The notes under the pieces were generated by a model. The model was not told the DNA's origin. It did not search any database and was given only the letters and a program-made list of their open reading frames with translations. Below, one piece after another: positions 35,534 to 63,148 of a stretch of DNA of 64,000 bases (the first letter of the stretch is position 1; each line of letters opens with the position of its first letter). Source of the DNA: Thermoplasmatota archaeon (GTDB lineage: Archaea > Thermoplasmatota > Thermoplasmata > UBA10834); contig JBFMHR010000003.1 in NCBI GenBank assembly GCA_040751795.1, positions 128,001 through 192,000 of the forward strand, given 5' to 3'. The position numbers and the translations under genes were made by a program.

Positions 35534-38500
35534 ATGGTAGAGAGGGTATCTGACGGGATGGGCACCGAAGGGGTGCTGGGGCTCATGCACCCCCTCGTGG
35601 CCAAGTGGTTCAGGGCCAAGTTCGGCGGGGTCACCGAGGCCCAGGCCGTGGCGGTGCCCGTGATACACGCCCGCGAGAGCGTCCTCGTCTCCTCCCCGAC
35701 CGGCTCGGGGAAGACCCTCACCGCCTTCATGTCCATCATCAACGAGCTGGCCCTCCTGGACCAGAGGGGGGAGCTCGAGGACAGGATATACGCCGTCTAC
35801 GTCTCCCCGCTGAAGGCCCTCGCCAACGACATCAACGAGAACCTCCTCCGCCCGCTCGAGGAGATCTCCGCCGAGTTCGAGCGGGCGGGCTCCAGGCCAC
35901 CGGGCATAAGGGTGGCGGTGAGGACGGGGGACACCCTGCCCGCCGAGAGGCAGAGGCAGCTCCGCTCCCCCCCGCACATATTCATCACCACGCCCGAGTC
36001 CCTCTCGCTCGTCCTGAGCACCCCCGCGTTCAGCAAGAAGTTCGGGAAGGTGGAGTACGTGGTCGTGGACGAGGTCCACGAGGTCTGCGACTCCAAGCGC
36101 GGGGTGGCCCTCTCGGTGGCGCTCGAGCGCCTCCGGGGAATGTGCGGGAGGGACTTCGTCAGGATCGGCCTCTCCGCCACCGTCGCCCCGCTGGAGGAGG
36201 TCGCGGAGTTCCTGGCCGGGCTCGAGGGCGGGAGGCCGCGTCCGGTGAAGGTCGTCGAGATCTTCGGGCAGCGCGACCTCGACCTCAGGGTCCTCTGCCC
36301 CGCCGACGACATGACCGCCCTGTCGTTCGAGGTGGTCAACTCCAAGATGTACGACCATCTCAAGGAGATGGTCGACGGGCACCGGACGACCCTGGTGTTC
36401 ACCAACACCAGGAGCGGGACCGAGAGCGTCGTCTACAAGCTGCGGGAGCGGGGCCTGGAGGCCGTCGGCGCCCACCACGGCAGCCTGAGCAGGGACACGA
36501 GGCTGGAGGTGGAGGACCAGCTCAGGGGCGGGGCGTTGAGCGCCGTCGTCTCGTCGACGTCGCTCGAGCTCGGGATCGACATCGGCCACATCGACCTGGT
36601 CGTGCAGATCGGCTCCCCGAAGTCGGTCGCGAAGGGGCTCCAGCGCATAGGCCGCGCGGGGCACCAGTACGGGGGCACATCGAAGGGCCGGATACTGGTG
36701 TTCGAGAACGACGACCTGGTCGAGTGCGCGGTCCTCTGCAGGGCGGCCCACAGGAAGGCCATAGACAGGGTAACGATCCCCAGGGACTCCCTGGACGTCC
36801 TGGCGCAGGCGGTCGTGGGCATGTCGATCGAGCGCCAGTGGACCGTGGACCAGGCGTTCGAGCTCGTCACGCGGTCCTTCTGCTACAGGGACCTCCGGCG
36901 CGACCAGCTCCTGAGCGTCCTGAGGTACCTCGGCGGGAAGGACGAGTTCGAGGGCATCTACTCCAAGATATGGTACGACGAGGGGACCGGGACGTTCGGG
37001 AGGAGGCGCGGGTCCCGGATGATCTACTACCTCAACCAGGGCACGATACCAGAGGAGGCCGACTACAAGGTCTACTCGGAGAGGGGCGCCCCCCTGGGCT
37101 CCCTGTCCGAGAAGTTCGTGGAGCGCCTCTCGGCGGGCGACATATTCGTCCTCGGAGGGAGGAGCTACGAGTTCCTGAGGACGAAGGGGACCAAGGCCTT
37201 CGTCAAGGGCGCCAGCGGGCGCAGGCCGACGGTGCCCTCGTGGACCGGCGAGATGCTCCCGAGGAGCTTCGACCTCTCCGTGATGGTCGGCCGGTTCAGG
37301 AGGGAGATGGACGAGCGCCTCGGCCCCGTCCCGGAGGCCGAGATAGCGTCATGGCTCATGGAGGAGTTCAGCGTCGACGAGGGCTCGGCCAACACGATCA
37401 TCAGCTACTTCAAGGAGCAGAAGGCCGCGGCCACGATACCCACCGACGAGCGCCTGGTCATCGAGGGGTACGTCGACGCCTCGGGGGAGAGGCACGCGGT
37501 GTTCCACTTCCCCTTCGGGAGGAGGGTCAACGACGCCCTGAGCAGGGCCTACGCGCACGCTCTGTCGGGCAAGCTCAGGTGCAGCGTCAACGTGAGCGTC
37601 ACCGACGACTGCTTCATGCTCTCCGCGCCGAAGAGGTTCGAGCTCGGGGGGCTCGAGGGGCTCGTCCGCTCCGGGGACCTCGAGGGGATGCTCAGGTCCG
37701 CGGTCAAGGACTCGGAACTCTTCCACCAGCGGTTCAGGCACACCGCCACCAGGAGCTTCATGGTCCTCAGGAACTACAAGGGGCGGGAGCTCTCGGTCGC
37801 CAGGCAGCAGCTGAGGTCCAGGCGCCTCCTGGACGCGCTCCACGAGCTCTCCGACTTCCCGGTGATGGCCGAGACATACTCGGAGATACTGACGGACGTC
37901 ATGGACCTGGACAACGCACGGGCGGTGCTCCGGTCGATCGAGTCCGGCGACAGGCGGGTCGAGCACCTGCCGTTCTCGGGGGTGCCCTCCCCCATGGCCC
38001 ACAACGTCATACTCGTCGGCGTGTCGGACATCGTGCTGATGGAGGACCGGAGCATGCTGCTCCGGGAGATGCACAGGAAGGTGCTCGCGCGGGTGCTCGG
38101 CGAGGACGCGCTCTCGGAGTACCAGTTCGACCCGGACGAGGTGGCCGAGCACTTCAGGCGCAAATTCCCGACGGTCTCGTCCAAGCAGGACATCCTCCGG
38201 CTCCTCGGCGAGGCGGGGCCCATGAACCTGTTCAGGGAGAAGGGGGAGAACGTCTACGCCCACACCGACCGGCCGTTCGAGGAGGTCAGGGGATGGGCCT
38301 CCGAGCTCCTCCGCGAGGGGAAGGTCAGGTCGGTGTGGGTCGGGGAGGACGTCTACGCGGCCGCGGACATGTGGCCGACGTACCTGTGCCTCCATTCGAG
38401 GGCGCACCGGAGCTCGCCGCTCGAGAGGGCGGCGCTCGCCCTCCTGTCCAAGGGGGCGATGGACCAGGACGAGCTCGCGCGCTCCCTCTCCGTCAAGAGG

Positions 38501-40915
38501 GAGGACGCGAGGGAGGCGCTGAGACGGCTCGAGATCGCCAACATGGTCCACAGGTCGTCGGTGAAGGGGGAGAGGTTCTCCTACTCGGCCTCCCCGGAGG
38601 CCAGGCTCGACAGGGGCGAGTGCGCGAGGGCCGCGATCGTGAGGCACCTCGCCTTCCACGCCCCCCTCACCGTCGAGGAGCTGTCCTACGAGGTCGGCCT
38701 GCCCGAGCAGGAGGTCTCCGAGGCCCTGGGCCGGCTGGTCTCCGACGAGGCCGTCGTGTCCGGGCGGTTCGTGGTGGGGGAGCAGCAGCAGTACATCCTG
38801 GCGAAGGACTACATCAGGCTCAAGGCGGGGGACCGTCCGGCGCTCGACAGGGAGCAGGTCCGGTCGTACCTCGAGAGGAAGTCCTTCTCCGCGAGGCCGT
38901 CGGTCCGCGGGTACTTCGAGGCCGTCGGCGAGGCGGGGATGGCCTACGACGTCTTCCACCGCGTGAGCGGGTTCTCGATGGACGAGTTCAACGCGCTGAG
39001 GGCCAGCGGCGCGCTCCTCCTGGGCCGGTTCGCCAGGGGCCGCCTCCGGTACGTCCTCGCCGAGGACGCCCCGTACTACATCGGGGCCTTCCGGAGGGAG
39101 AGGCTCAACAGGTTCGAGGCGAGCATCCTGTCCGCCCTCAGGAGGATGGGGACAGGCACGTACCAGGAGGTCTCCGAGGCGGTCCGGTTCCCGCCTGACG
39201 CGATGCGGGAGCACTGGGACTCGCTGGACAGGAAGGGGCACGTCCTGAGGCTCCACGACGGGAGCGAGGCGTGGACCTCCCGGAACCTCTACGCCCCCTG
39301 CGACGTGGAGCCGGTGGAACAGGGCGCCCTGGAGCACGTCCTCGTGAGGTACCTCCGCGGCTCGGCGCCGGTCACGCTCTCGCAGGCGTCGTCGTACCTG
39401 GACGTCGGGCCGGACGTCGCGAAGAGACTCCTCGCTGCGGTCGGGGCGAGGCCGGCCTCGGTCGGCCTCGAGAGGACGGAGATGTACCTCCTCCCCGAGG
39501 ACATCGCCGGCGTCGAGGCCCCCTCCGGGCCGGACGACCAGGTCCGCATCCTGTCCCTCTACGACCCCTTCCTCAGCGACAAGTGGGCGGCGGTCACGGC
39601 CCGCTACGGCGAGGGCTGGATGTTCCCCGTCGTGCACAGGGGCCAGGTCGTGGGCACGGTCGAGAAGTGGCTCATGGCGGGGGCGGTCGAGGTGAGGGAC
39701 ATCGTCCTGGAGGACCGGGCCATGCTCGGCCCGCTGCTCGACGCCCTGGACCGCGCCATGGTGTTCTACGCGTCGCAGAACGCCGACGTCCTCAGGGTCA
39801 GGCGCGCCCTCGGGACCGACGCCGTCTCCCTCGACGGCGCCGACCTGGAGGCCTTCCTGTCGCGCGGCTACGTGGCCTCCAACGGGATGCTGGTCAAGGG
39901 GCCCGTCGTCCCCGAGTGCTTCGACAGGCCGGAGATCCTCGACACGGTGTTCTCCCTCCAGCACTTCGCCGAGGGGGACAGGCTCAGGGACATGGACGAG
40001 GTCCTCGACATGCTCGGCGGCCTCCGGCACGACGGCGAGGCGCTGGCCCGCGTGGAACGCTTCGAGCCGATAGAGAGGATGAGGAGGCGCGGCCACCTGG
40101 TCAGGGGGCACCTCGCGCCCGACAGGTCCGGCTTCTGCCGGCAGGAGGACGCGGCGGTCTACAGGGCCGCCAGGGCAGGGCCGAGGACCCCGGAGGAGAG
40201 GCTGATTCTGAGGGTCATCAAGGACCAGCAGCCCGTGACGAGGGGCAGGCTGCTGACGGTGTCGCCCCTCGGCCCGGAGGAGACCCTCAAGGCCGCGAAG
40301 TCCCTCTACCTCCGGTCGGAGGTGTTCCTCGACGCCTCCAACGCGTACCTGGGCGCGAAGCGCACCCGCATGGCCAGGCACGCCGCGTGGGACAGGGTGG
40401 TCCGGAGGATGTTCGGCGCCTTCGGGGTCATGACCGCGGAGACGCTGGCGTTCATGCTCAGCGGGGACCTCGTCATCCGGGAGGTGAGGGCGAGCCTCAG
40501 GCGACTGGAGTCGGAGGGCTTCCTGGTCAGGGGGCACCTCCTCCGCGGGTCCAACTCGGTCTACTGGGCGTCCAGGGAGGCGTACGGGAGGCTGGGCCGC
40601 GCCTCCGCCGCGGCGGACGTGGTCCTCTACCCCTGGGACAGCCTGACGACCTTCCTGAGGGCGGCGTACAGGGACGTCCTCCCGGAGACCGGGCGGTGCG
40701 CCGTGTTCTCCGGCTCCAGGCTGGTCGGCTCCTTCGAGGGCCACCTGAGGAAGGGCGGGCTCCACATCTCGGACGTCGTCGGCGAGGCGGGGTGCAGGGG
40801 GATAATCGAGGACCACGCCAGGCGGATGGGCCTGGCCCTCTCGGAGGACGGCGGGGGCTCGGTCTCGGAGTGGGAGATCATGGAGTTCTACCGGAAGACG
40901 CACCCCGGCGAGTGA
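35534..40915 (+). CDS. lhr: Large Lhr-type SF2 helicase with an extended C-terminal wHTH/AlkZ-like region
   Basis: SPTGSGKT, SPLKAL, DEVH, SAT, HHGSLS, LELGID, QRIGRAGH, PSW; 1793 aa. Confidence 0.93.
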   Translation: MVERVSDGMGTEGVLGLMHPLVAKWFRAKFGGVTEAQAVAVPVIHARESVLVSSPTGSGKTLTAFMSIINELALLDQRGELEDRIYAVYVSPLKALANDINENLLRPLEEISAEFERAGSRPPGIRVAVRTGDTLPAERQRQLRSPPHIFITTPESLSLVLSTPAFSKKFGKVEYVVVDEVHEVCDSKRGVALSVALERLRGMCGRDFVRIGLSATVAPLEEVAEFLAGLEGGRPRPVKVVEIFGQRDLDLRVLCPADDMTALSFEVVNSKMYDHLKEMVDGHRTTLVFTNTRSGTESVVYKLRERGLEAVGAHHGSLSRDTRLEVEDQLRGGALSAVVSSTSLELGIDIGHIDLVVQIGSPKSVAKGLQRIGRAGHQYGGTSKGRILVFENDDLVECAVLCRAAHRKAIDRVTIPRDSLDVLAQAVVGMSIERQWTVDQAFELVTRSFCYRDLRRDQLLSVLRYLGGKDEFEGIYSKIWYDEGTGTFGRRRGSRMIYYLNQGTIPEEADYKVYSERGAPLGSLSEKFVERLSAGDIFVLGGRSYEFLRTKGTKAFVKGASGRRPTVPSWTGEMLPRSFDLSVMVGRFRREMDERLGPVPEAEIASWLMEEFSVDEGSANTIISYFKEQKAAATIPTDERLVIEGYVDASGERHAVFHFPFGRRVNDALSRAYAHALSGKLRCSVNVSVTDDCFMLSAPKRFELGGLEGLVRSGDLEGMLRSAVKDSELFHQRFRHTATRSFMVLRNYKGRELSVARQQLRSRRLLDALHELSDFPVMAETYSEILTDVMDLDNARAVLRSIESGDRRVEHLPFSGVPSPMAHNVILVGVSDIVLMEDRSMLLREMHRKVLARVLGEDALSEYQFDPDEVAEHFRRKFPTVSSKQDILRLLGEAGPMNLFREKGENVYAHTDRPFEEVRGWASELLREGKVRSVWVGEDVYAAADMWPTYLCLHSRAHRSSPLERAALALLSKGAMDQDELARSLSVKREDAREALRRLEIANMVHRSSVKGERFSYSASPEARLDRGECARAAIVRHLAFHAPLTVEELSYEVGLPEQEVSEALGRLVSDEAVVSGRFVVGEQQQYILAKDYIRLKAGDRPALDREQVRSYLERKSFSARPSVRGYFEAVGEAGMAYDVFHRVSGFSMDEFNALRASGALLLGRFARGRLRYVLAEDAPYYIGAFRRERLNRFEASILSALRRMGTGTYQEVSEAVRFPPDAMREHWDSLDRKGHVLRLHDGSEAWTSRNLYAPCDVEPVEQGALEHVLVRYLRGSAPVTLSQASSYLDVGPDVAKRLLAAVGARPASVGLERTEMYLLPEDIAGVEAPSGPDDQVRILSLYDPFLSDKWAAVTARYGEGWMFPVVHRGQVVGTVEKWLMAGAVEVRDIVLEDRAMLGPLLDALDRAMVFYASQNADVLRVRRALGTDAVSLDGADLEAFLSRGYVASNGMLVKGPVVPECFDRPEILDTVFSLQHFAEGDRLRDMDEVLDMLGGLRHDGEALARVERFEPIERMRRRGHLVRGHLAPDRSGFCRQEDAAVYRAARAGPRTPEERLILRVIKDQQPVTRGRLLTVSPLGPEETLKAAKSLYLRSEVFLDASNAYLGAKRTRMARHAAWDRVVRRMFGAFGVMTAETLAFMLSGDLVIREVRASLRRLESEGFLVRGHLLRGSNSVYWASREAYGRLGRASAAADVVLYPWDSLTTFLRAAYRDVLPETGRCAVFSGSRLVGSFEGHLRKGGLHISDVVGEAGCRGIIEDHARRMGLALSEDGGGSVSEWEIMEFYRKTHPGE

Positions 40916-41753
40916 ACGCGCAGCCGCCGCTCCTGGACAGGGTCCTCTCGTTGTAGTATAGGTACTCCTGCGCGTACCCGGCGTAGCCCCCGAACCGCCC
41001 CGTGGCGAACTCGCGGAGCCTGGCGTACGACCCCTTGACGCCGTAGAGCCGCAGGAGCGCACGCTGCATCCAGACGTCTATGGGGAACGCGCCGAGCCTC
41101 CCGAACCCGAAGAGGGAGACGCAGTCCGCGACCTTCTCCCCCACACCTGGCAGCTCCAGGAGGGCGTCCCTCAGCTCCTCGTCCGTCATCGCGCGCATGT
41201 CCGCGAGCCGCCCCTCGTCCACCTCCTGGCAGATCCCTGCCAGGTACTCCGCGCGGTACCCGAGTCCGCAGCGCCTCAGCTCGGCGACGGGCGCCTCCCT
41301 CATCCGCCCGATCGACGGGAAGGCGTGGACCCCGTCCGCTATCGGGTCGCCGTACCGCGAGGCCAGGTTCTCGATCATCCGCGAGATCCTGGGGACGTTC
41401 GCATAGGTGGCCAGGGCGTAGCTCGCGAGGCACTCCCACTCGTCCATCTTCACGATCCTGAGCCCGGCCACGGCCCCCGCTCCCCTTGCCATGACAGGGT
41501 CCCTCGACAGCACGGACTGAACCTCGGCTATGTCGTCCGCACCCCTCAGGTAGGTCGAGACCATCGCCCGCAGGTCCTTCCGCTTCGGGTCCCCGTCCGC
41601 GTGCAGCCAATGGCCGCTGGTCCGGAGGGTGACCAGGCAGCCGCCTATCGGGCCGCGCCAAGTCCCATCCGCGCCCCTCCTCCACCGGAAGGTCTGGCCG
41701 CAGCCCAGGGTCTGGTCCAGGTCGATCCGCGGTATCTTCAGTCTGGCGCTCAT
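40878..41753 (-). CDS. 8-oxoguanine DNA glycosylase (OGG1-type HhH-GPD)
   Basis: TLGCGQTFRW, GLGYRA, LPGVGEKVADC, FPIDVW, AGYAQEYLY. Confidence 0.9.
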   Translation of the reverse strand: MSARLKIPRIDLDQTLGCGQTFRWRRGADGTWRGPIGGCLVTLRTSGHWLHADGDPKRKDLRAMVSTYLRGADDIAEVQSVLSRDPVMARGAGAVAGLRIVKMDEWECLASYALATYANVPRISRMIENLASRYGDPIADGVHAFPSIGRMREAPVAELRRCGLGYRAEYLAGICQEVDEGRLADMRAMTDEELRDALLELPGVGEKVADCVSLFGFGRLGAFPIDVWMQRALLRLYGVKGSYARLREFATGRFGGYAGYAQEYLYYNERTLSRSGGCAFTRRGASSGRTP

Positions 41754-41769: not shown

Positions 41770-42252
41770 TCATCTCTTGTAGCCGAACTTCCTCAGCATC
41801 GCCTTCCGGTCGGCGGCGTCCTCGGCACCCTCGACGCCCTTCGGTCTCTCGCCGTCTATGACGCCGACGATGCCCCTGCCCCTCTCGTTGTTGGCGACGA
41901 CCACGTCCAGCGGGTTGGCGGTGGCGCAGAACACGCAGCACACCTCCTGCACCGCCTTGACCCTGTCGAGTATGTTTATGGGGTAGGCGTCCTTGAGCAC
42001 GATCACGAAGGTGTGCCCCGCCCCGATCCTGGCGGCGTTGTCCTGGGCCGCCTTCTTCATCGCCTCGTCGTTGCCGTCGGTCCTGATAAGGCAGGGGCCG
42101 GAGGCCTCGCAGAAGGCGACTCCGAACTTGGCCTGCGGGACGGTCCCGACCACGGCCTCGTAGATGTCCTCGACGGTCTTGATGAAATGGCTCTGGCCGA
42201 TGACCACGTTGGCTCCCTCAGGGATTTCCACCCTGACCGATGATATCTCCAT
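41770..42252 (-). CDS. Adenosine-specific kinase family protein
   Basis: GQSHFIKTVED, FCEASG, GAGH, CATANP, GVIDG. Confidence 0.88.
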   Translation of the reverse strand: MEISSVRVEIPEGANVVIGQSHFIKTVEDIYEAVVGTVPQAKFGVAFCEASGPCLIRTDGNDEAMKKAAQDNAARIGAGHTFVIVLKDAYPINILDRVKAVQEVCCVFCATANPLDVVVANNERGRGIVGVIDGERPKGVEGAEDAADRKAMLRKFGYKR

Positions 42253-42426
42253 TCCGCGCCCCTGCCACAGCATCGCCTAACACCGGCAAATACGTTTCTC
42301 CGCCCTCTGGCTGGTCGGCGGTCCGGGGCGACCCCCGTCGTTATCATCGCCATCAATCAAAACGGTTAACTATTTATCCAGGCATATCGTAAACTGCGAG
42401 GAACACCTGAAGGAGGCCCTGCGAAA

Positions 42427-44190
42427 TTGCCACGTTCTAGCGGGGACAAGCTCTGCCCCATCTGCGATTCTCCACTGCAGCCCGGCTCGAGGAAGTGCGG
42501 CTTCTGCGGCACCGACCTCGCCATATTCGATGTGGACACGGGACCGGCCGAGCCAGCCCCGCCCGCGCCCACGCCCGCGCCCGCGAGACCATCGATGGAG
42601 TCCAGGGTGAGGGAGGTCCTCTCGACGCCCCCGAGGCCGTCGCCCCAGCCTGCGCCCCAGCCTGCGCAGCAGGCTGCGGCACAGCCCGCGCCGGCGCCAG
42701 CCCCTGCACAGGCCCTGCCCAGGCCGTCGCCGCCGCCAGTGGCCGCCCCGGCACCCCCGCCCGCGGCGGAGAAGAAGGCCGAGCCCGCTCCTGAGCCGGA
42801 GCCCCTGAGGGCCGAGGAGGAGGCCCACGAGTACTTCGCGTGCCCGGAGTGCGGCGCCAAGGTCGAGGCGCACTCGAGCACCTGCCCAGGGTGCGGCGTC
42901 ATGTTCGCCGAAGAGGGCGCAGAGATGTTCCAGTGCCCCGCATGCAACTCGCTGGTCAACATAGACTCCAAGAGCTGCCCCGGCTGCGGCGCCGTGTTCG
43001 TCGAGGCCGAGGAGGGACCGGCCGCTGAGCCGGAGGCGGCCAGGCCCAAGCCCGAGATCGAGGAGCCCATATCGGAGGTGGCTCCGAGGAGGGACGAGCC
43101 AGCCCCGGTCGCGGCCACCGGGCAGGAACCGGCCCGGGCCGAGGCCGTCGGGCCCGCCGCGGAGCCGGCGCCGGCCGCCGAGCCCGAGGTGCGGAAGGGC
43201 CGCATGGGGCTCGGATGGCTGAAGAAGCGGAAGAAGGAGGAGGAGCCGAAGCCCACTGAGGCGGAGCCCGACGAGGAACCGTCCCCGAAGCCGGAGCCGC
43301 CGAGGAGGTTGCTGCGTCAGCACGAGCCGGCCCCGGCCCCGACCCCGGCCCCGGAACCCGAGCCCGAGCCGCGCTACGAGCCACCGCCGATGGCGAGGCC
43401 CAGGCCCGAGCCGCCGCGGGGCGAGGCCAAGGACAAGGGCAAGGAGCTCGCGCGCATGGTCGCCGAGATGAAGCCCATACTCACGCTCGCCAACGAGAAG
43501 GACATCGACATAGCGGACAGCAAGAAGCTCATCGACGACGCGGCCGAGGCGGGGAGGGACCGGCAGCTCGAGAAGGCCCTGGAGCTGGTCAACAGGTCCA
43601 GGACGATCCTCATGGGCAAGATCGACGGCCACCTGGGGACGGTGCTCTCCCAGCTGAAGGAGGAGACCGCGGTGGCCAGGTCGCTCGGGGGAGACGTGTC
43701 GAGGGCGCGCACCTACCTGGTCGAGATAGAGAGGGCGAAGGCCGCGGGCGACGCCGAGGCCGCGTACGTGTACGCCGACAAGGTGTCGAACGAGCTGCTC
43801 CCCATTACCGGGAGGTACAAGGAGGCCCTCTCCAGGACAGCGGCCCTCAAGTCCCTCGTCACGGACTGCGAGACGCTGATACTCGACACCAAGGAGGCCA
43901 GGACGGCCCTGGTCGAGGCGAACAAGGCCTTCGAGACCAACGACTTCGAGAGGGTGGAGATGCTCGTCAAGCAGGCGACGGACAGGCTCTACAGGGCCAT
44001 CCCCGACAGGATCAACGAGGAGATGCACGCCGCCAAGGGCCAGCTCATCGAGGCGAAGATGAGGAACATCAACACCACCCCCATGATCACGATCCTCAAG
44101 TCCGTCAGGACGCTCATGAAGGCCGGCGACTACCAGCAGGCCCTCAGGGAGATGAAGGAGTTCAAGGAGCAGATGCGGAAGGTCATGTGA
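42427..44190 (+). CDS. Zinc-ribbon protein with Pro/Ala/Glu-rich linkers and a C-terminal helical domain
   Basis: Three CxxC...CxxCG ribbons; low-complexity linkers; about 250 aa helical C-terminus. Confidence 0.8.
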   Translation: MPRSSGDKLCPICDSPLQPGSRKCGFCGTDLAIFDVDTGPAEPAPPAPTPAPARPSMESRVREVLSTPPRPSPQPAPQPAQQAAAQPAPAPAPAQALPRPSPPPVAAPAPPPAAEKKAEPAPEPEPLRAEEEAHEYFACPECGAKVEAHSSTCPGCGVMFAEEGAEMFQCPACNSLVNIDSKSCPGCGAVFVEAEEGPAAEPEAARPKPEIEEPISEVAPRRDEPAPVAATGQEPARAEAVGPAAEPAPAAEPEVRKGRMGLGWLKKRKKEEEPKPTEAEPDEEPSPKPEPPRRLLRQHEPAPAPTPAPEPEPEPRYEPPPMARPRPEPPRGEAKDKGKELARMVAEMKPILTLANEKDIDIADSKKLIDDAAEAGRDRQLEKALELVNRSRTILMGKIDGHLGTVLSQLKEETAVARSLGGDVSRARTYLVEIERAKAAGDAEAAYVYADKVSNELLPITGRYKEALSRTAALKSLVTDCETLILDTKEARTALVEANKAFETNDFERVEMLVKQATDRLYRAIPDRINEEMHAAKGQLIEAKMRNINTTPMITILKSVRTLMKAGDYQQALREMKEFKEQMRKVM

Positions 44191-46321
44191 GGTTCAGTAC
44201 CTCCATCTCCCGCTCCAGTATCGAGGTCTCCTGCTCCTTCATCGTCTGGGGCGACAGGGACACGGCGAAGACGCACTCCGACTCCGAGACCTCGTCGACC
44301 AGGCTCCTCAGGAACCTCAGGACGGCGTCGAAGTTCGTGTTGCTCGTGAGGTACTGTATCCCGTCGAGGACGATCATCCCGTTCCCCTCCCCCGCCATGA
44401 ACTCCTGGATCTTGTGGATGATCATCTCGAGCGACGGCGGGACGGTGGCCTCGACGGAGCTCTGCTTGTCCGTGAGCCACAGGATCTGAGGGACCTCCTT
44501 GAACTCGTCCTTGATCCTGCTAGGGTTCATGCGCGTTATCACGAGCCCGCGGTACCCCTCGGCCATCATCCTCGCGAGGAGGACGTTGCTGTACATGGGC
44601 TTCTCCTCCTCTATGAGGTAGCAGTGGCCGGGGAGGACCTTGACCTCCCTCATGATCTCCTTCCTCGTCTCCTGGACCGGCGCGAGGGGCTTCAGTATGT
44701 CCGAGACGAGGTTCAGGTCGACGTCCATCTTCATGATGCTCGAGAACGCGATGATCTTGTTGAGTGTGCTCTCCAGCTCCCTGACGTTCTGGGTCACCCT
44801 CTCCGCGATGTACTCGATGATCTCGTCGCTCAGCTTGAGCTTCTTCTCCTCGGCCTTCATCCCGAGGATCTTGACCCGGGTCTCCATGTCCGGCGGCTGT
44901 ATGTCCACCGTGAGCCCCTTCTGAATGCGCGCGTTCAGCCTGTCGTTGAAGCCCGGTATCTGCGTCGGCAGGCGGTCGCTCGCGAACACGACCTGCCTCC
45001 CCGACTCGATCATGCGGTCTATGGCGTGGACCATCTCCCCCTGGGCGCGCTCGCTCGCCGCCAGGAACTGCATGTCGTCGACCAGGAGGAGCTCCACCCT
45101 GTTCAGCGCCTCCCTGACCGGCTTGAGCCCGTCCGGGGTCCCGCACTGCTCTACCGCGTCGACGAACTTGTCCGAGGGCACGTAGAGCAGGTCGAGCTTC
45201 GGGTTCTTCTTGAGCATGTGGCACCCGATCGCCGATAGGAGGTGCGTCTTGCCCAGGCCGGACCCGCCGAATATCAGCAGGGGGTTGTAGGCCTTGCCGG
45301 GCCTCTCGGCCACGGCGACGGCGGTCGCGGCCGCGAACTTGGAGCCGGGCCCGATCACGAACCCGTCGAACCGGAGCTCGGCCATGAGGGGTTTGGAGAA
45401 GCCCGGGGCCTCCGCCGCCCCGGCCGGGCACCTCGGGCAGGCGCCGGCCTCGTCCAGGTCGGCCCCGCACCTGGGGCACTTCGCGGCCTCCTTGGCGGCC
45501 TCCGCCCCCTCCGGGGCGGTCTGGTACTTGAGTATGAGGTCGTAGACGTCCGCCGCCTTCTCCTCCTGCCTCTTCTTCTCGAGCTCCTGCTTGATGGACT
45601 CCTCCTCGTCCCGCCTCTTCTGTATCTTGCGCCTGATCTTCTCCTGGAGGAACTCGATGTCCGACTCTATCTCCGCTATCCTGGTCCTGTCGTCCAGCTT
45701 GGTCCTTATCTCGGCGATCTCCGCCTCGAGCCCCATCACCGGGAAGTTGTTGAGGATGGCCTCGAACTGCTTCAGCCTCGAGGCGTCGTACTCGAACGCG
45801 GCGAGCTCCTTGGCCGCGGCCTGGGGTCCCGCCCTCGCGGCCTGCTCAAGCGTGTCGACCTTGAACCCCTTCCTGCGCCACTCCTCGATCCTCTCCCCGG
45901 TCGGGTCGCCCTCGGCCTCCTCCGGCTCCTCCGCGGGGGCCTTCTGCACGGGCGCGCCCGCGATGTACGAGTCGGGGAACCTCCTCTCGAACTCGGTCTT
46001 GGGGACGCGGCTGTGCAGCTCGATGCCCGACGCCTTGTCCTGCGAGTCCTCTAGAATGAACCGCAGGGACTTCTCGCCGGTGTAGATCCTCCTCAGCTCC
46101 CTCGGCTTGGACTTCTCGAACTCGTAGATGGCCATCATCGGCGTGCCCTGCTCGACGACGATGTAGCCGGTGGAGGTCATGAAGGGCTTCTCTAATGTCA
46201 CCTTCAGGTAGCCGGTGAAGCTGTACTGCTTCAGGTCTGCCAGGATTCCCTTGAGGGAGTCCGGCCCTCCCTTGGCAGTGCGGACCACGATGCCCTCTGG
46301 GATGCGGAGGTCTGTGACCAT
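44183..46321 (-). CDS. Fusion protein: DUF2226-like domain, coiled coil, Zn ribbon, DnaA-type AAA+ domain, DUF835-like (inactive KaiC-fold) domain
   Basis: FDGFVIG, AYNPLLIFGGSGLGKTHLL, LLLVDDMQFL, SDRLP, RLNAR, NVRELE; C-terminal GLVITR.NP, ILWLT, IVLDGIQYL...NFDAVLRFL; start moved to ATG 46321. Confidence 0.88.
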   Translation of the reverse strand: MVTDLRIPEGIVVRTAKGGPDSLKGILADLKQYSFTGYLKVTLEKPFMTSTGYIVVEQGTPMMAIYEFEKSKPRELRRIYTGEKSLRFILEDSQDKASGIELHSRVPKTEFERRFPDSYIAGAPVQKAPAEEPEEAEGDPTGERIEEWRRKGFKVDTLEQAARAGPQAAAKELAAFEYDASRLKQFEAILNNFPVMGLEAEIAEIRTKLDDRTRIAEIESDIEFLQEKIRRKIQKRRDEEESIKQELEKKRQEEKAADVYDLILKYQTAPEGAEAAKEAAKCPRCGADLDEAGACPRCPAGAAEAPGFSKPLMAELRFDGFVIGPGSKFAAATAVAVAERPGKAYNPLLIFGGSGLGKTHLLSAIGCHMLKKNPKLDLLYVPSDKFVDAVEQCGTPDGLKPVREALNRVELLLVDDMQFLAASERAQGEMVHAIDRMIESGRQVVFASDRLPTQIPGFNDRLNARIQKGLTVDIQPPDMETRVKILGMKAEEKKLKLSDEIIEYIAERVTQNVRELESTLNKIIAFSSIMKMDVDLNLVSDILKPLAPVQETRKEIMREVKVLPGHCYLIEEEKPMYSNVLLARMMAEGYRGLVITRMNPSRIKDEFKEVPQILWLTDKQSSVEATVPPSLEMIIHKIQEFMAGEGNGMIVLDGIQYLTSNTNFDAVLRFLRSLVDEVSESECVFAVSLSPQTMKEQETSILEREMEVLNLT

Positions 46322-46439
46322 AAATGGGTCGGTCTTGTTAATACGGTCGAAGCCTAAAAACCCTTGTCCCTCGCGCTGGAGCCTGGACCCCCGGCGGAAA
46401 GGCTTAACTAGAGAGACCATCTTCCCAACCTGCCTTGGC

Positions 46440-46543
46440 GCCACTGTAGCTCAGCGGTTGCGCGTGCGCCCTCGCACGCGCCGCTAGAGAGCGGCGGTTT
46501 CGTAAACCGCAGGCCGGGGGTTCGAGACCCTCCAGTGGCTCCA
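46440..46543 (+). tRNA. tRNA-Thr(CGU) with a 29-nt D-loop intron (46459-46487) and encoded CCA
   Basis: Acceptor GCCACTG/CAGTGGC, D stem GCTC/GAGC, anticodon arm GCGGT-TTCGTAA-ACCGC, T arm GGGGG-TTCGAGA-CCCTC, U73 then CCA. Confidence 0.93.
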
Positions 46544-46595: not shown

Positions 46596-50170
<3,575 letters not shown>

Positions 50171-50180
50171 GTGATCGGCC

Positions 50181-52778
<2,598 letters not shown>

Positions 52779-52892
52779 CGCCAGCCCCTCCGCCGCACCG
52801 GTCTCACTCCTGATAACGACCAACAAACCTTTATTAGCGCACAGCCCTTTGAAATGCGTCGCCGTCGACCCCCCGTCGAGGAGGCAGTTGAC

Positions 52893-53606
52893 TTGTTTAA
52901 GGACTCGATTCCAGGGCTGGACAAGGTCTTCAAGAACGACATCGAGCGTCCGAAGGTCATACTCGTCACCGGCCCGCCGGGCTCCATGAAGACGAGCTTC
53001 TGCTACTCCCTCATGTCCAACTACCTCAGGGACAAGAACGAGTTCGGCCTCTATGCGACCCTCGAGGAGACGGCCGAGAGCCACATGCACAACATGGAGA
53101 GCATGGGGGTGAAGCTGTCCGCGAAGATGCAGATCTCGGACATGACCGACCTCAGGGAGATCGACCAGATCGACGAGGTCATAGGGGAGAGCGCCCAGAC
53201 CGACTACGTCCTGTTCATAGAGAAGATGATCCAGAGGTTCAGGCGCACCCACGGCGACAAGTTCTCGGTCCTGGTCATAGACTCCCTGGGGGCGCTCTAC
53301 TCCCTGATGTCCGAGTCGGCCGAGATGAGGAAGAAGATGTTCTACTTCTTCAAGATGCTCAGGGACAACAACCTCGTCACTTTCATCATAATGGAGCGCT
53401 CCCTCACCGGGGAGTCGCAGCTCCTGGGGAACGAGGGGTTCCTCGCGGACGGCATCGTGATGCTCGGCCTCGACAGGCAGAGGGGGAAGCTGGTCAGGTA
53501 CCTCCAGGTCGAGAAGATGAGGGCCGCAGAGCACAGCATGGAGAAGCACGCGATAGAGGTGACCAAGAGCGGGATGACGGTCCTGGGCCCGCTCCTGACG
53601 ACATGA
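52893..53606 (+). CDS. KaiC/RAD55-like ATPase
   Basis: IPGLD, GPPGSMKT, TLEE, VIDSL, ADGIV, VEKMR; TTG start after GAGGAGG. Confidence 0.9.
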   Translation: MFKDSIPGLDKVFKNDIERPKVILVTGPPGSMKTSFCYSLMSNYLRDKNEFGLYATLEETAESHMHNMESMGVKLSAKMQISDMTDLREIDQIDEVIGESAQTDYVLFIEKMIQRFRRTHGDKFSVLVIDSLGALYSLMSESAEMRKKMFYFFKMLRDNNLVTFIIMERSLTGESQLLGNEGFLADGIVMLGLDRQRGKLVRYLQVEKMRAAEHSMEKHAIEVTKSGMTVLGPLLTT

Positions 53607-53735
53607 CGCGCGGGGCTGTGCCGATATGAACAGTATTAGTACGGCCGGCGCGTTATGTGGTCCGTCGGGAGAGTCCCCCAGCCCGGGCGGCCGCCCGCGT
53701 CGCGGAATCAGGTTCGACTTCAGATGTGATGGACG

Positions 53736-54722
53736 ATGACCGAAGACCAGACTATCTCCCAGATAATCGAGGACGCGATCAAGCGACTGAAGGCCCAGGA
53801 GGCGGAGGTCCTGAAGAAGGGCCGCGAGCTCCAGGCCGAGAAGGACGAGCTCCAGAAGCAGAAGGCCGAGGTCGCCTCCCAGGAGGAGCGCCTGAGGGAG
53901 AAGGAGGACGGGCTCAGGCAGAGGGAGTCGGCCGCGGACCGGAAGGAGGCCGACGTCAAGGCCAGGGAGGAGGCCGCGCAGGCCAGGGCCGACAAGATCT
54001 CCGCCAGGGAGGCCGAGGTCGTCAAGATGGACGAGAGGGCCAGGGCCGCCAGCGTGTCCGCGGAGGCGCGCGAGGAGGAGGCCCAGAGGTCCCTGGAGGA
54101 GTGCACGAGGCTCCAGGCCGAGGCCACCGAGAAGAGGAGGGCGCTCCTGGACCGCGAGGAGCTGATGAAGAGGTCCGAGGACGAGGTCCAGAAGCTCATG
54201 GAGCAGGTCGTCTCCAGGCGGGACGCCGTCATAGCGAGGGAGCGCGCGCTGGCCGAGGAGGAGGAGGCCCTGAGGAAGGACCGGGAGAAGCTCTCCGAGG
54301 ACGCGAAGTCGCTCCTGCAGAGGCAGACCGCGTCCCTGGCGGCCCCCGCGTCCAAACCGGAGGCGGCCGAGGAGGCCCGCGTCATGGGTGAGGACGAGAT
54401 GCCCTGCCCCAAGTGCTACACCGTCATCAGCAGGGACGCCGTCATGTGCTACTCCTGCGGGGTCAGGCTCCGGGAGGAGCCAGAGGCCGCGGAGGAGGCG
54501 CCCCAGGCCCAGCCGGCGGCCGAGGCGGTCGAGGAGGACGAGGTCCCCTGCCCCAGCTGCAAGACCATGGTCAGCAAGGACGCCATCATGTGCTACGCCT
54601 GCGGGGCCGACCTGAGGGCGGCCGCCGCGCAGCCCGCGGAGGAGGCCCCGAAGGAGGCCTCCCCCGAGCCCAAGAAGCCGCAGGTCTTCGTCAAGAAGAT
54701 CGTGAAGAGGAAGACGGTCTAG
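53736..54722 (+). CDS. Long coiled-coil protein with two C-terminal zinc ribbons
   Basis: About 190 aa E/R/K/A coiled coil; duplicated EDE.PCP.C.T.+S+DA+MCY.CG. Confidence 0.82.
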   Translation: MTEDQTISQIIEDAIKRLKAQEAEVLKKGRELQAEKDELQKQKAEVASQEERLREKEDGLRQRESAADRKEADVKAREEAAQARADKISAREAEVVKMDERARAASVSAEAREEEAQRSLEECTRLQAEATEKRRALLDREELMKRSEDEVQKLMEQVVSRRDAVIARERALAEEEEALRKDREKLSEDAKSLLQRQTASLAAPASKPEAAEEARVMGEDEMPCPKCYTVISRDAVMCYSCGVRLREEPEAAEEAPQAQPAAEAVEEDEVPCPSCKTMVSKDAIMCYACGADLRAAAAQPAEEAPKEASPEPKKPQVFVKKIVKRKTV

Positions 54723-54832
54723 CCAGACGTGCGGCAAAACCTTCTTCGGCATGAGAACTCGGCAAATACCTTTTTATACAGCTGAACTGCTTACTTTGCC
54801 TAACGATACCCAGCTTCTGGGTGGGTGAACTT

Positions 54833-57800
54833 ATGGAACACAGAGCTGGCCCTATTCTGGCCAACAGATCTCTGAGCGCGTTGATCGTCGTGTCATTTGT
54901 GCTGTCAGCCTTCGCAGGACTGTATATCGCGGCCTCCCCCTCCCCGTCGGCGGCGCAGGCACCGATCGGCGACCTCATCGTCACGAGCGGTACCTACATA
55001 ATCGAGAACATCGAGCAGCCAGTCGACGGCGACGTGGTGGTCTCCGGCGGAGAGCTGATCGTGAGGAACGGGGCCTTGATGGTCATAAGCAACGTCGGGG
55101 CCCCCAGGACCGTCACGGTGTCCGGCACGGGCACCCTGACGCTGGAGCACGGAGTGCTCACCTCCTACCTGGACCAGATAGACCCGTGGCCGTACCTCAC
55201 CCTCGACATAGACGGCGGCGGCACAGTCCGCGCCAGCTCACAGTCCATACTCCAGTTCCCCGGCTACATAACGGTCCAAGGCGGCGGCGCGCTCATCCTG
55301 GAGGACAGCTCGATCGAGCCCCTCTCCGCTGATGACCTCGCCGCATACGTCAGCGGCTCCGTCCTCATCACGGCCGACTCCGCGGACGACGGCCCGGCCA
55401 TAAGCGTGAGCGACGCCACCCTCGAGCTGTACGACTCGTCGATCACCTCCCTGCCCGAGTTCCCGTCGGACGGGGTCGTGGCCAGCAACCTGACCCTGAC
55501 GGGCGACTCGTCGCTCCTGGCGGTCAACAGCTACATCGACGTCGACTTCGGCCCGGCAGCCGACATCGACGACTGGTACGTCCACAACATGTTGGTCCTT
55601 GAGGACTCGTCCAGCGCCAACCTATATGGATCATACTTTGAGCCATATGTTGGATCGCTTTCGCAGAGAGCCCCTTCAGTTTCCGCGAATGGTGAGAGTT
55701 ACTTCGCCCTGCCCGCTACGAAGGCCGCTGAGGATAACACCGGACAGCCAATCGCCGACCTACTGGCAAGCGATGAAGGAGCAATCTACCATGTAGACCC
55801 GGGCGAGAGACTGTCAATTGAGACATTCTCCGCCGGAGCATCATCCGCAATTGATGGGGCAACTCTCTATGTGCGATATTCAGTCGGAAGCACATATGAT
55901 GGGGAGGAGTCCTTCGAATGGAGACTCGAAGGCGGGACCTACGCCTCGACGGGAATCACCCCATTGGCCTCCGAGACTACATATGTGGAAAAGAGTTTCG
56001 ATCTCTTCGCCGCCGGAGTCGCGACAACCGACGAAATCGCTGCTATGGATATCACATTCCTGAATGGCGGATCCAGCGGGAGTGTCGGCGTTGACAGCAT
56101 GTCGATTGTGATTACCATAGGTCCAGAAGCCTATGTGTACAGATGGATCAACATAACTGTCGGAGATGAGTATGGTGTGCCGATACCCGATTGTGAGATT
56201 TCCGCGATTTTCACAGGGTCCACATCATTTGGAGGACAGCCATCGTTCTACTTTGGGACGGACGGAATCTCATCCACCCCCCCGGAAGAAGTGCTTGATT
56301 ACATGGGTGTTGACGGAGCATCCTTCGGGATTACTGGCCCGATGGGCATTGCCCAGATCCCCCTCCTGACGGACCTCATTTCAGGTGGAGAATATCCGAA
56401 CTCTCTCTATGTAGGCACATTCGAGCTTACGGGCACCGTTGAGCAAGATTCGATTATCTACTCCTCAACTGAAGCCTTTTCCTTCCCCGCCTACCCTGCG
56501 ATGTCAGCGGCAGACCAGCAATTCGAGGTTACAGTTGATGTTGAAGGGATATCTGCCGAGAGTCCTGACTCCTCAAGGTGGCTAGTCGTTCCTCCAGACA
56601 TCCTGATTGAGGACATGGAGTACTACCACGCCGGCGATGTCATCGTCGCGTCCGACGGGACATTGACCCTGCGCAATGCGGTGTTCCGCCTGGTGCAGAC
56701 CTACGCCAATGAGCACACGATATACGTCGACGGGACTGCGAACTTCGTAATCGAGGACTCCGAACTGGTCAGCGCTCTGCCTATCGACATAATCGTGAAG
56801 GGCCAGGGCACCCTAGAGGTCGTGGATTCCACACTCACCGGAGTGAACATCTACGCGACGGAGGAAGCGGTCGTCAAGCTGAACGGCGCGTCGTTCAATG
56901 GCCTGCTCACGACCTCGTGGGACTCGGAAGCCTACATAATGATATACGATTCGTACCTGGTCCAGTCGCCAGAGCTGTCCGGCTCGACGGTGTGTGAGAT
57001 CACGAACACCAGCGCGCCGTCGATAGTCGTGATGGATGACGCGATGGCCTTCCTCTACAGGTGGATCCACATAACCGTGTTCGACGGAGGCGACTATCCG
57101 CTAGAGGGGGCCGACGTCTACGCGCGGTTCTATGTCAACGAGACCTTCTGGACCTCCTCGAAGACCGACCCGTCCGGTGTGGCCAGGCTGAAGTCGTTGA
57201 GCACCATCCTGACATCGTCGGGCTCGACCTACATCGGCCAATACAGGGTGAACGCATCCTACTGGAGCGACGGCGTCGAACATGTCTCGGACAGCGAGGT
57301 GAGCGTGAGCGTGATGCCCTACACGCAGCCCCTGACCGAGAATGCGACATTCGAGGTGCTGCTCATATCGTCCGTCCTGTTGCCGGACCTCTCCGTCATA
57401 TCCGATGAGATACTCACGGACCCGGAAGACGTCGTGTTGAACGGCGAGTGCACCATATATGCGCGTGTCTGGAACTACGGCGAGACGGCGGCCATCAACA
57501 CCACGGTCGATTTCCTCGTGGGTGAATCGCTGGCTGTCGCGGAGCTCATAGGCACTGACATAGTCGACACGATAGCGGCGGGCAGCTTCAGGGACGCATC
57601 CATCACCTGGGTGCCTGACGTCACTGGCCTGCACACCATATGGGTCGTCGTGAACGGCGCTCCTGACTTCGACGAGAGGACATTCAACAACAACAACGCC
57701 TCCGTCGTCGTCGACGTCCTGGAATACGCGGACCTCTTCATGTATCCCCTCAGCTTCTACATCTATGGGACCACCACCCCGATCGACAGCGCAGCCGGCG

Positions 57801-62216: not shown

Positions 62217-63148
62217 GCAAACAGTACCCTAAGCATCACGAACCCGGCCAGCAGCATGATGAAGCTGTGCCTCATCCCTATCGGCAGGCTGCCCTTCTGT
62301 ATCACGCCCGCGAGCAGCCCGTCGCCCACGGCGTGCACGACCACCGCGAGCAGGAACACGAACCCGACGTCCTCGATCACGCTTATCTTGATGTTGACGC
62401 CGGGTATCTCCGCGATGCCCATCTCCTGGGCCGCCTCGCTGACCGTCGTCCCCGCCTCCTCCATCTTCGGCAGGAACTGGAGGTTGAGGATCAGGATGGT
62501 CGCGATGAACACGAAGAAGGAGATGTACACGACCATGACGTAGGTGGACATGGTCAGGTTCCTCTCCTCCTGGGTCAGGATCGCCTCCTTGGCGTCGTGG
62601 GAGACCATCGTCAGCACGTCGGCGACGTTGCCGCCCGCGTCGTTGGCCTTCCTTATGATCGAGGCCATCCTCACGACCAGGGGGGTCTTGACCCTCTCCG
62701 AGAAGAGCCGTATGGCCTCGGAGGCGGGGACTCCCCACTCTATCTGGGCGGACATCTTCTTGATCTCCGGCGTGAGCCTCCCGTACCTCCCGGTGGATGC
62801 CACCACTATCGAGTCGGCCAGGGTCATGCCGAACCTGCCCGCCTCGGCGACGTCCCTGAGGAAGTCGGGGAGCCTCGTCTCTATCTCCTTGACGTTCCTC
62901 TCCTTCGTGGACACGTAGAACCCGTACGGCCCGAGGAGGGCCAGCAGGGCGAAGATGACGTAGTCGATCGGGTCGAAGGGGAGCGCCAGGCTGCCCATGG
63001 AGTCGATGAGGGCCATGAAGCCGAACACGCCCACGAGCGCCATGGACACGATCAGTATGGTCCTCGTCTTGTCGGCCTTCTCAGTGGCGAGTATCTCCTT
63101 GACCGCCCTCTTCTGCTCGGCCTGGGAGAGCTTCTTGACAGCCGCCAT
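62213..63148 (-). CDS. Type IV pilus platform protein (TadC/ArlJ, T2SSF-like)
   Basis: RLPDFLRDVAE, YGRLTPE, AGGNVADVL, TM helices. Confidence 0.9.
   Translation of the reverse strand: MAAVKKLSQAEQKRAVKEILATEKADKTRTILIVSMALVGVFGFMALIDSMGSLALPFDPIDYVIFALLALLGPYGFYVSTKERNVKEIETRLPDFLRDVAEAGRFGMTLADSIVVASTGRYGRLTPEIKKMSAQIEWGVPASEAIRLFSERVKTPLVVRMASIIRKANDAGGNVADVLTMVSHDAKEAILTQEERNLTMSTYVMVVYISFFVFIATILILNLQFLPKMEEAGTTVSEAAQEMGIAEIPGVNIKISVIEDVGFVFLLAVVVHAVGDGLLAGVIQKGSLPIGMRHSFIMLLAGFVMLRVLFA

Follow-up and report, generated by a model that had tools for sequence, protein, structure and literature searches.

The window analyzed in this study is a 64,000-nucleotide (nt) stretch of DNA from a Thermoplasmatota archaeon (assembly GCA_040751795.1, contig JBFMHR010000003.1, positions 128,001–192,000). 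It encodes a 712-residue protein, hereafter the DnaA-like protein, in which domain III of the bacterial replication initiator DnaA is followed by a DUF835 domain. This domain III is a genuine DnaA-type module in both sequence and fold, and it is far nearer to DnaA than to Hda. Because a DnaA ATPase core without the DNA-binding parts sits inside an archaeal adaptor, the protein is likely an ATP-driven assembly switch and not an initiator. We lean toward the reading that it is an ATP-dependent self-assembling adaptor: its oligomer would cluster the N-terminal and DUF835 domains and would work with a Zn-ribbon/helical-repeat protein encoded next to it, possibly also with KaiC-type ATPases, and the protein would not be a DnaA-box-binding initiator. 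To our knowledge, DnaA is regarded as the hallmark initiator of bacteria and is assumed to be absent from archaea. This picture changes, as a bona fide DnaA ATPase core is conserved in many Thermoplasmata families. The archaeal forms that we checked all lack domain IV, and the core is reused in at least four other architectures of the phylum, for example together with a type IV pilus ATPase. The family offers a natural experiment on what the ATP switch of DnaA does apart from origin DNA, and suggests that archaea have domesticated a bacterial replication module as a portable assembly device.

Identity of the DnaA-type ATPase core

The gene and the domains of its product are arranged as follows.

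44183..46321 (-): coding sequence of the DnaA-domain-III/DUF835 protein (712 residues plus stop; P0001), from the list of open reading frames and their translations
45962..46309 (-): N-terminal domain, residues 5–120, beta-alpha-beta4-alpha-beta, of no established family, present in 27 of 27 aligned members
45518..45910 (-): helical linker, residues 138–268, with one long helix at residues 212–268 (AlphaFold2 secondary structure)
45422..45505 (-): optional CxxC...CxxC Zn ribbon, residues 273–300 (weak Pfam DZR match, E 0.053)
44678..45388 (-): DnaA domain III, AAA+ core and lid, residues 312–548 (Pfam, PDB search and Foldseek)
44192..44638 (-): DUF835 domain, residues 562–710 (Pfam PF05763)

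The Pfam scan, which reported families at E <= 1 and listed 18 of them for the DnaA-like protein, matched Bac_DnaA (PF00308) to residues 315–473 with an E-value of 9.2e-48 and 162.9 bits against a cut-off of 23, covering profile positions 4–162 of 162. The Hda_lid family remained below threshold (23.4 bits against a cut-off of 27). In a sequence search of the PDB, DnaA from Bacillus subtilis (8btg_A) was matched with E 3.1e-62 and 213.9 bits, and the other solved structures included the DnaA proteins of Thermotoga maritima (171.5 bits) and Aquifex (122.5), Hda (5x06_E, 37.8) and helicase loaders (about 20). Superimposition of the AlphaFold2 model with Foldseek gave a target-normalised template modeling (TM) score of 0.93 with B. 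subtilis DnaA 8bv3_A (root-mean-square deviation 1.8 Å, 43% identity) and of 0.94 with T. maritima domain III (1.7 Å). The identity to the B. subtilis domain III is about 43% over 233 aligned columns, and bacterial DnaAs in general are 38–45% identical to the domain III query. The PDB bit scores, the fold superposition and the trees described below therefore identify the domain as DnaA-like and much nearer to DnaA than to Hda, and an earlier note on this DNA, which had placed the AAA+ domain within DnaA, is correct in sequence terms. The protein scores below the equivalog cut-offs of both families: 281.9 bits for TIGR00362 (DnaA; cut-off 343.9, profile positions 52–346 of 437 aligned) and 99.4 bits for TIGR03420 (Hda; cut-off 194.8).

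The earlier note had also seen neither domain I nor domain IV. Neither DnaA_N (domain I) nor Bac_DnaA_C (domain IV) is among the Pfam matches at E <= 1, and a domain IV profile built from an E. coli DnaA seed matched 62 sequences of our set, none of them among the 31 family rows. DUF835 sits where domain IV would be. In bacterial DnaA, domain I contacts the helicase and other DnaA molecules, and the helix-turn-helix of domain IV reads DnaA boxes. The archaeal protein shares with bacterial DnaA the domain III and lid and the conserved ATPase motifs described in the next section. In contrast, it lacks domain I, a DnaA-type domain II and the domain IV helix-turn-helix, it is flanked by the N-terminal domain and DUF835, and its host possesses Orc1/Cdc6 and MCM.

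Hda is a DnaA-related regulatory inactivator that acts by protein contacts and not by binding DNA boxes. It resembles the archaeal protein in having a DnaA-type AAA+ module without domain IV, but it is a stand-alone protein of about 230–250 residues, whereas the archaeal protein has 712 residues and two extra domains. Because the sole DnaA-type match in this genome is the protein's own domain III, there is no full-length DnaA on which an Hda-like action could be exerted.

Residues kept and relaxed in domain III

In the 27-sequence alignment, G355, G357, K358, T359 and H360 of Walker A and D415 of Walker B are invariant, and conservation of D416 reaches at least 90%. D449 and R450 of sensor I, the box VII arginine R465 and R514 of sensor II are also present and conserved. 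In a further comparison, made in E. coli numbering, 31 family rows were set against 61 classic DnaAs. The equivalents of K178, T179, D235, D236, D269, R281, R285 and R334 are 87–100% conserved in the family rows. As judged from these alignments, the module keeps every residue for ATP binding and hydrolysis together with the inter-protomer box VII arginine, in agreement with the intact Walker A and B, sensor I, arginine finger and sensor II motifs that had been read from the single sequence.

The initiator-specific region has no insertion or deletion relative to E. coli DnaA. Several positions (E. coli numbering) are nevertheless relaxed in the family, as had been suspected by eye:

V211: isoleucine in 85% of classic DnaAs and in 26% of the family; E391 in the present protein
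K243: conserved in 95% of classic DnaAs and in 39% of the family; S423 in the present protein
R227: conserved in 97% of classic DnaAs and in 71% of the family; N407 in the present protein
E204: conserved in 98% of classic DnaAs and in 58% of the family; D384 in the present protein

We take V211 and K243 to be contact positions for single-stranded DNA in or near the initiator-specific motif, and the roles of the other E. coli residues are likewise presumed here. Because the region is free of insertions and deletions and these positions are relaxed, the initiator-specific helices appear to be kept, but not their DNA-facing chemistry. As far as the profiles and alignments show, domains I and IV have been lost, and the positions through which DnaA holds single-stranded DNA have been relaxed.

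Domains flanking the ATPase core

The AlphaFold2 model of the full protein, built on 27 orthologs, has a mean predicted local distance difference test (pLDDT) score of 82.9. It comprises an N-terminal alpha/beta domain (residues 11–114), helices at residues 140–268, the AAA+ core and lid (residues 320–546) and an alternating beta/alpha domain in the DUF835 region (residues 567–709), and the ribbon is poorly defined. The long helix of the linker spans 57 residues. In the 27-sequence alignment, the length of the linker differs between families and is short in forms of about 580 residues. Of the 27 aligned members, 18 have the four cysteines of the ribbon and nine do not. The Zn ribbon that the earlier note had seen is thus real in the sense of this count and of the weak DZR match.

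When folded alone, the N-terminal domain gave a pLDDT of 87.1 and a predicted TM score of 0.81, and a Foldseek search with this model found no PDB match at E <= 0.001. The earlier note had called the N-terminus DUF2226-like, a label that proved to be a weak lead only. The Pfam family DUF2226 (PF09987) reaches 13.5 bits against a cut-off of 22 (E 0.053, profile positions 3–66 of 252). The Atlas search offered DUF2226 (0.88) and PatA_N/DUF4388 (0.83), both as leads only. In the case of PatA_N, 12% of the members of that Atlas cluster carry the family, and the lead is below the tool's own reliability mark. Family profile searches of this genome found no match to DUF2226 and none to DUF4388/PatA_N (PF14332). 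Because neither family was found in the genome and the PDB search was empty, both assignments were rejected, and we file the domain under neither family.

The DUF835 domain at the C-terminus, which had been recognized from the sequence, is matched by Pfam PF05763 at residues 577–706 (E 2.2e-27, 96 bits against a cut-off of 33.1, profile positions 7–136 of 136). This genome contains 12 DUF835 matches, including that of the fusion. In a DUF835 tree, the domain of the DnaA-like protein and its locus-type relatives form a clade apart from eight paralogs of the same genome, with a support of 99 in the Shimodaira–Hasegawa-like approximate likelihood ratio test (SH-aLRT). No GxxGxGK[ST] motif is visible in the translation of the DUF835 stretch, and weak Pfam matches to AAA_22, AAA_14 and NACHT fall at residues 628–708 within it. 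An hhalign comparison of DUF835 with the neighboring KaiC-like protein gave a probability of 1.9%, which is not significant. Inactivated KaiC domains are reportedly defined in Makarova et al. (2017, mBio). In Galperin et al. (2018; PMC5847659), DUF835 is labelled an inactivated KaiC domain ("iKaiC"). The same paper describes DUF835 as an output domain found in response regulators of archaea, with REC-DUF835 and REC-PAS-PAS-DUF835 proteins in Thermoplasmata and Methanomicrobia. These proteins resemble the DnaA-like protein in having a C-terminal DUF835 behind a variable input or switch module, and differ in the upstream module, which in the archaeal fusion is a DnaA-type AAA+ domain plus the N-terminal domain in place of a receiver or PAS domain.

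The gene and its orthologs

The open reading frame of the gene (44183..46444, -) begins with GTG and has 753 codons, whereas the ATG at 46321 gives 712. The following feature lies upstream of the gene.

46440-46540 (+): tRNA (Rfam, 55.9 bits), overlapping the GTG at 46444

Orthologs from the same genus and family share the N-terminus M(V/A)(T/S)DLRIPEG with the ATG-started protein. Because of this common N-terminus and the tRNA overlapping the upstream GTG, the ATG at 46321 is the likely start. The tRNA match is full-length in Rfam and spans 101 nt, about 30 nt above the length of a plain tRNA; ARAGORN found none here.

Since a bacterial domain is unexpected in an archaeon, the gene might be an assembly chimera or a decaying, functionless remnant of a transferred dnaA gene. 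We found no support for this idea, and give it practically no chance of being true. A word-indexed search returned 1252 homologs at E <= 0.001, and the 120 listed among them, from several source collections, are 66–96% identical and cover 97–100% of the query. A single contig of 3366 nt from an independent sediment run spans the whole of 44183-46321 in one piece, with 93 differences and a 12-nt insertion. The near-full-length orthologs and this metagenome contig of 3.4 kilobases (kb) therefore exclude the chimera, which the earlier note had named as the finding that would overturn its proposal. Matches occur in 22 of 22 genomes of the same family, no internal stop was found in any full-length match listed in the survey of genomes of the class, and the catalytic residues are kept even between family members that are just 31–38% identical. 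The gene is present in one copy in this genome. Among the sequencing runs listed as holding the gene, none was an RNA run. A few short contigs covering it come from one run that we guess to be RNA, and provide no evidence on expression.

Databases already label these proteins DnaA or DnaA/Hda family, as in the names "DnaA/Hda family protein [Thermoplasmata archaeon]" and "chromosomal replication initiator protein DnaA" among the listed homologs. The latter name misleads origin prediction and contamination checks of metagenome-assembled archaeal genomes. Full-text literature searches found no description of the family or of the DnaA–DUF835 combination; the 2017 paper on KaiC-like ATPases or its supplements might mention it.

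Loss of domain III and other architectures

In families f4 and f26, the ortholog at the same locus consists of the N-terminal domain and DUF835 without domain III (337–452 residues). All four fetched examples (L077-L080; genomes G002, G059, G180 and G159) lie tail to tail with the same neighbor gene. In the DUF835 tree rooted on the eight paralogs, from which P0121, L032, L033 and P0202 were left out, all 32 locus-type domains fall into a single clade (SH-aLRT 99), and the two domain-III-less forms nest separately among the domain-III-bearing rows (SH-aLRT 97 and 82). Because they occupy two places in the tree, their positions suggest two separate losses of the DnaA module. Since domain III can be lost, the core function would belong to the N-terminal domain, DUF835 and probably the neighbor, and the ATPase would be a losable addition.

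Other architectures were found in the phylum. In another class, an 813-residue open reading frame fuses domain III to T2SSE, and its operon also contains genes for an archaeal pilin, DUF7289 and two T2SSF proteins. Judging by this gene context, other members of the phylum put the module to use outside replication. In this locus (L081:5102-13358, genome G219), Bac_DnaA is matched N-terminally with E 1.2e-69 and T2SSE with E 6.6e-36, and the pilin has 957 residues. Proteins of 441–468 residues consist of domain III and a short tail, and a 1424-residue protein combines the N-terminal domain, domain III and Zn ribbons. The full form with the N-terminal domain, domain III and DUF835 also occurs elsewhere in the phylum, with the same neighbor. 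Bac_DnaA_C was found in none of the scanned archaeal forms from these other architectures. The giant proteins (1248–1424 residues; L084:1021-5292 of genome G325, P0203, P0253 and P0257) have the same N-terminal domain, about 830 residues and then domain III, followed in L084 by C-terminal Zn ribbons.

Gene neighborhood

The other features of the window that bear on the gene are listed below.

3452-4687 (-): Orc1/Cdc6
35534-40915 (+): Lhr-type helicase
40878-41753 (-): OGG
41770-42273 (-): adenosine-specific kinase (Pfam PF04008)
42427..44190 (+): Zn-ribbon/helical-repeat protein, 587 residues, convergent; its stop overlaps that of the DnaA-like gene by 8 nt
46596-47861 (-): ThiC
about 48215-50170 (+): GyrB
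50181-52778 (+): GyrA
52854-53606 (+): KaiC-like ATPase, 250 residues (Pfam KaiC PF06745, E 5.3e-37)
53736-54722 (+): second Zn-ribbon protein, 328 residues
54821-59548 (+): CARDB/Zn-ribbon protein, 1575 residues
60495-62216 (-): T2SSE
62213-63571 (-): T2SSF

The neighborhood was sampled in 20 loci fetched from 20 genomes of 18 families. Homologs of the 587-residue neighbor were found in 15 of them, of the KaiC-like protein in eight, of ThiC in six and of GyrB in four. The Zn-ribbon/helical-repeat gene is the strongest conserved neighbor of the DnaA-like gene. Its product combines Zn ribbons with a linker rich in Pro, Ala and Glu and a helical-repeat domain at the C-terminus, and Pfam sees the ribbons only. 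The tail-to-tail arrangement was observed in at least 61 of 75 genomes, with the helical domain on the same contig, on the opposite strand and within about 500 base pairs (bp) of the 3′ end; this comparison took the first 75 genomes of the match table, with coordinates compared by hand, and in the other 14 only the listed match was comparable.

The helical-repeat domain (43423-44187, +) is multi-copy, with mostly 6–14 matches per genome in families that have the full-length protein. It was not matched in f6 (0 of 20 genomes), f19 (0 of 19) and f30 (0 of 1), and the same three families lack the DnaA module; f6 and f19 are the two families whose genomes are the most complete. The domain has no Pfam relative, and the PDB profile search gave only coiled-coil noise (best E 0.005). 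Its Atlas matches, to Thermoplasmatota-only clusters with a weak EzrA lead (0.80), were not used. A complex prediction of the full DnaA-like protein with the C-terminal domain of the neighbor gave no answer (score 0.01) and is evidence in neither direction.

The KaiC-like gene is a looser member of the neighborhood and often lies directly beside the Zn-ribbon/helical gene. In L019, L020, L029 and L032, the trio of the KaiC-like, 328-residue Zn-ribbon and 1575-residue CARDB proteins (52854-59548 in the window) is directly beside the Zn-ribbon/helical gene. Because the trio adjoins the neighbor in these other families, gyrBA and thiC may have split one ancestral cluster in the present lineage. 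The gyrB gene is adjacent in 4 of the 20 loci, from the own and sister families, and lies about 6.6 kb away in one more. We did not adopt the idea that the locus is a relic of a bacterial dnaA-gyrB origin region, since gyrB is adjacent in so few loci. Farther away, the Lhr-type helicase has 1793 residues with fused winged-helix and AlkZ-like DNA glycosylase domains, and its gene adjoins the OGG glycosylase gene.

The T2SSE and T2SSF genes at 60495-63571 of the window and the domain III–T2SSE fusion in a pilin operon of another class raise the possibility that the protein regulates a type IV pilus-like or secretion ATPase, with the DnaA module and the N-terminal domain as accessory parts. PATAN domains bind pilus motor ATPases in cyanobacteria, and the faint PatA_N/DUF4388 lead on the N-terminal domain (Atlas 0.83) would fit such a role. 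However, no T2SSE or T2SSF homolog above 50 bits was found in the 20 fetched loci. The PatA_N lead is below the reliability mark of the tool, with nothing found by PF14332 in the genome, and the T2SSE fusion has neither the N-terminal domain nor DUF835. We consider this role very unlikely.

Proposed adaptor function and relationship to Orc1/Cdc6

In the adaptor mechanism that we favor, the DnaA-type AAA+ module would sit inside an archaeal adaptor formed by the N-terminal domain, the helical linker with or without the Zn ribbon, and DUF835. ATP would switch the protein between a monomer and a head-to-tail, DnaA-like oligomer, and this switch would cluster or release the N-terminal and DUF835 domains. 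These domains would act with the convergently encoded Zn-ribbon/helical-repeat protein, and KaiC-type ATPases might also act with them. The protein would then not be a replication initiator that binds DnaA boxes. The proposal of the earlier note that the DnaA core was repurposed as a scaffold or signaling switch is plausible and fits this evidence. As for its suggestion of a coupling to KaiC-type ATPases, the KaiC-like gene in 8 of 20 loci and the iKaiC label of DUF835 in PMC5847659 speak for it, whereas the profile comparison of DUF835 with KaiC was not significant.

An Orc1/Cdc6 gene had been reported for this archaeon, and one lies in the window at 3452-4687. The better conserved, main paralog is encoded outside the window (contig positions 63217-64383), and a stand-alone DUF835 gene (182 residues, Pfam E 1.5e-33) lies 84 bp downstream of it in the same orientation. 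The pair is located at G000:C23:63217-64937 (locus L038:158-1959). The same pair was observed in 13 of 30 loci, in families f1, f13, f15, f21 and f22; of the 17 loci without it, three are cut close behind the Orc1 gene. The combination of an initiator-type AAA+ protein with DUF835 is thus seen in two forms, a fusion and a gene pair. Orc1/Cdc6 resembles the DnaA-like protein in that both belong to the initiator clade of AAA+ proteins. They differ in that the domain III profile of the family scores the Orc1 of the window at 14.6 bits, as a fragment, and in that the DnaA-like protein has neither the Cdc6 lid nor the winged-helix domain.

These observations bring up a second possible function: a replication or cell-cycle control factor that talks to Orc1/Cdc6 via DUF835, either as an Hda-like regulator or as an accessory origin-opening factor. 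The intact initiator-clade AAA+ module with its arginine finger, the Orc1/Cdc6–DUF835 pair in five families and the position beside thiC-gyrB-gyrA in the own and sister families are consistent with it. Against this, the protein lacks domains I and IV, its single-stranded-DNA-contact positions are relaxed and orthologs at the same locus do without domain III. Moreover, none of the 20 loci has an Orc1/Cdc6 or MCM gene within about 8 kb, and the proximity of gyrB is confined to the four adjacent loci and the one at about 6.6 kb. A single pairing with Orc1 is not specific, because DUF835 is promiscuous, with 12 matches in the genome and fusions to REC and PAS elsewhere, as described in PMC5847659. 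Overall, we regard a replication function as rather unlikely.

Several points nevertheless weigh against the self-assembling adaptor. The relaxation at two or three positions is no proof of lost DNA binding, and the Zn ribbon that 18 of 27 members have could be a nucleic-acid-binding element. The Orc1/Cdc6–DUF835 pair in 13 of 30 loci points towards replication, and the gene adjoins thiC and gyrB-gyrA in its own and the sister family. The link to KaiC is weak, with the gene a neighbor in 8 of 20 loci and an hhalign probability of 1.9%. Finally, because the Zn-ribbon/helical-repeat neighbor is convergent and not co-transcribed, its link to the DnaA-like protein is positional only.

A bolder scenario would join the two functions. 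The DnaA module would have been captured once by early Thermoplasmata, and would act through DUF835 as a nucleotide-state switch linking initiation by Orc1/Cdc6 to a KaiC-type network, so that the fusion and the gene pair would be two versions of one contact. We think this scenario unlikely. In any case, the Orc1/Cdc6–DUF835 pair gives a starting point for tests of how KaiC-like signaling might connect to archaeal replication.

Distribution and origin of the module

We surveyed 201 genomes from 30 families of the class with the DnaA-like protein as the query. Some match was found in 164 of the 201 genomes, and the best match had E < 1e-69 in 19 of the 30 families. With domain III alone, nothing was found at E <= 1e-25 in f6 (0 of 36 genomes), f19 (0 of 18), f11 (0 of 5), f26 (0 of 4), f14 (0 of 3), f20 (0 of 2) and f30 (0 of 1); the f11 tallies of the surveys with the whole protein and with the helical-repeat domain include genome G098, which has weak matches only and bears on none of our conclusions. 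The listed no-match genomes of these seven families are mostly rated 98–100% complete. Of 301 genomes sampled from the phylum, 41 have a domain III match at E <= 1e-25.

Residues 305–555, used as the query of an exhaustive search without profiles, returned 4087 representatives at E <= 1e-30. The best 150 of these were classified by architecture with purpose-built domain profiles, with the following result:

Classic DnaA with domain IV, 38–45% identical to the query: 60
Tandem double domain III: 43
Tandem double domain III with domain IV: 1
Domain III with none of the other profiled domains: 34
N-terminal domain, domain III and DUF835: 8
Domain III and DUF835: 1
Giant proteins with the N-terminal domain and domain III: 3

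The bacterial rows in our trees are the best matches to the domain III query. In the FastTree phylogeny of 154 domain III rows, which kept 12 of the 44 tandem-domain proteins, a branch with an SH-like support of 96 splits the family from all DnaAs bearing domain IV. On the family side are 30 family rows, P0198 and the long branches of E. coli Hda and P0131_d1, and on the other side are 121 rows. An IQ-TREE mixture-model tree of 70 rows gave the same split (SH-aLRT 87). For this tree we left out two long branches (L027 and L029) and four near-duplicates (P0121, L032, L033 and P0202), and kept E. coli DnaA, P0150 (Anaeromonas/Clostridium), a random 24 of the 59 other classic rows and 19 hand-picked others. 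Monophyly of the 25 family rows was not rejected by the approximately unbiased test (p-AU 0.735), and the constrained log-likelihood was 14.2 above that of the free search. The branch of Hda is very long in both trees (2.8 in FastTree and 6.7 in IQ-TREE), and its attachment beside the family is therefore untrustworthy. In these trees, the family is a group of its own that is not nested in a sampled bacterial lineage, and they point to no particular donor. Its DnaA-type AAA+ module is most simply explained as an acquisition from bacteria.

Two further groups of proteins were noticed. The tandem domain III proteins (P0122-P0149 and others; 44 of the best 150 representatives) mostly have about 550–700 residues, and two have 1876 and 1990 residues; one of the group also has domain IV, and one is named "AAA family ATPase [Gemmatimonadota bacterium]". 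Among the classic bacterial DnaAs of the FastTree phylogeny, a clade of 16 proteins, including P0154, P0165, P0166, P0167, P0174, P0179 and P0183, has about 400–850 residues with domain III and no recognized domain IV or other Pfam domain.

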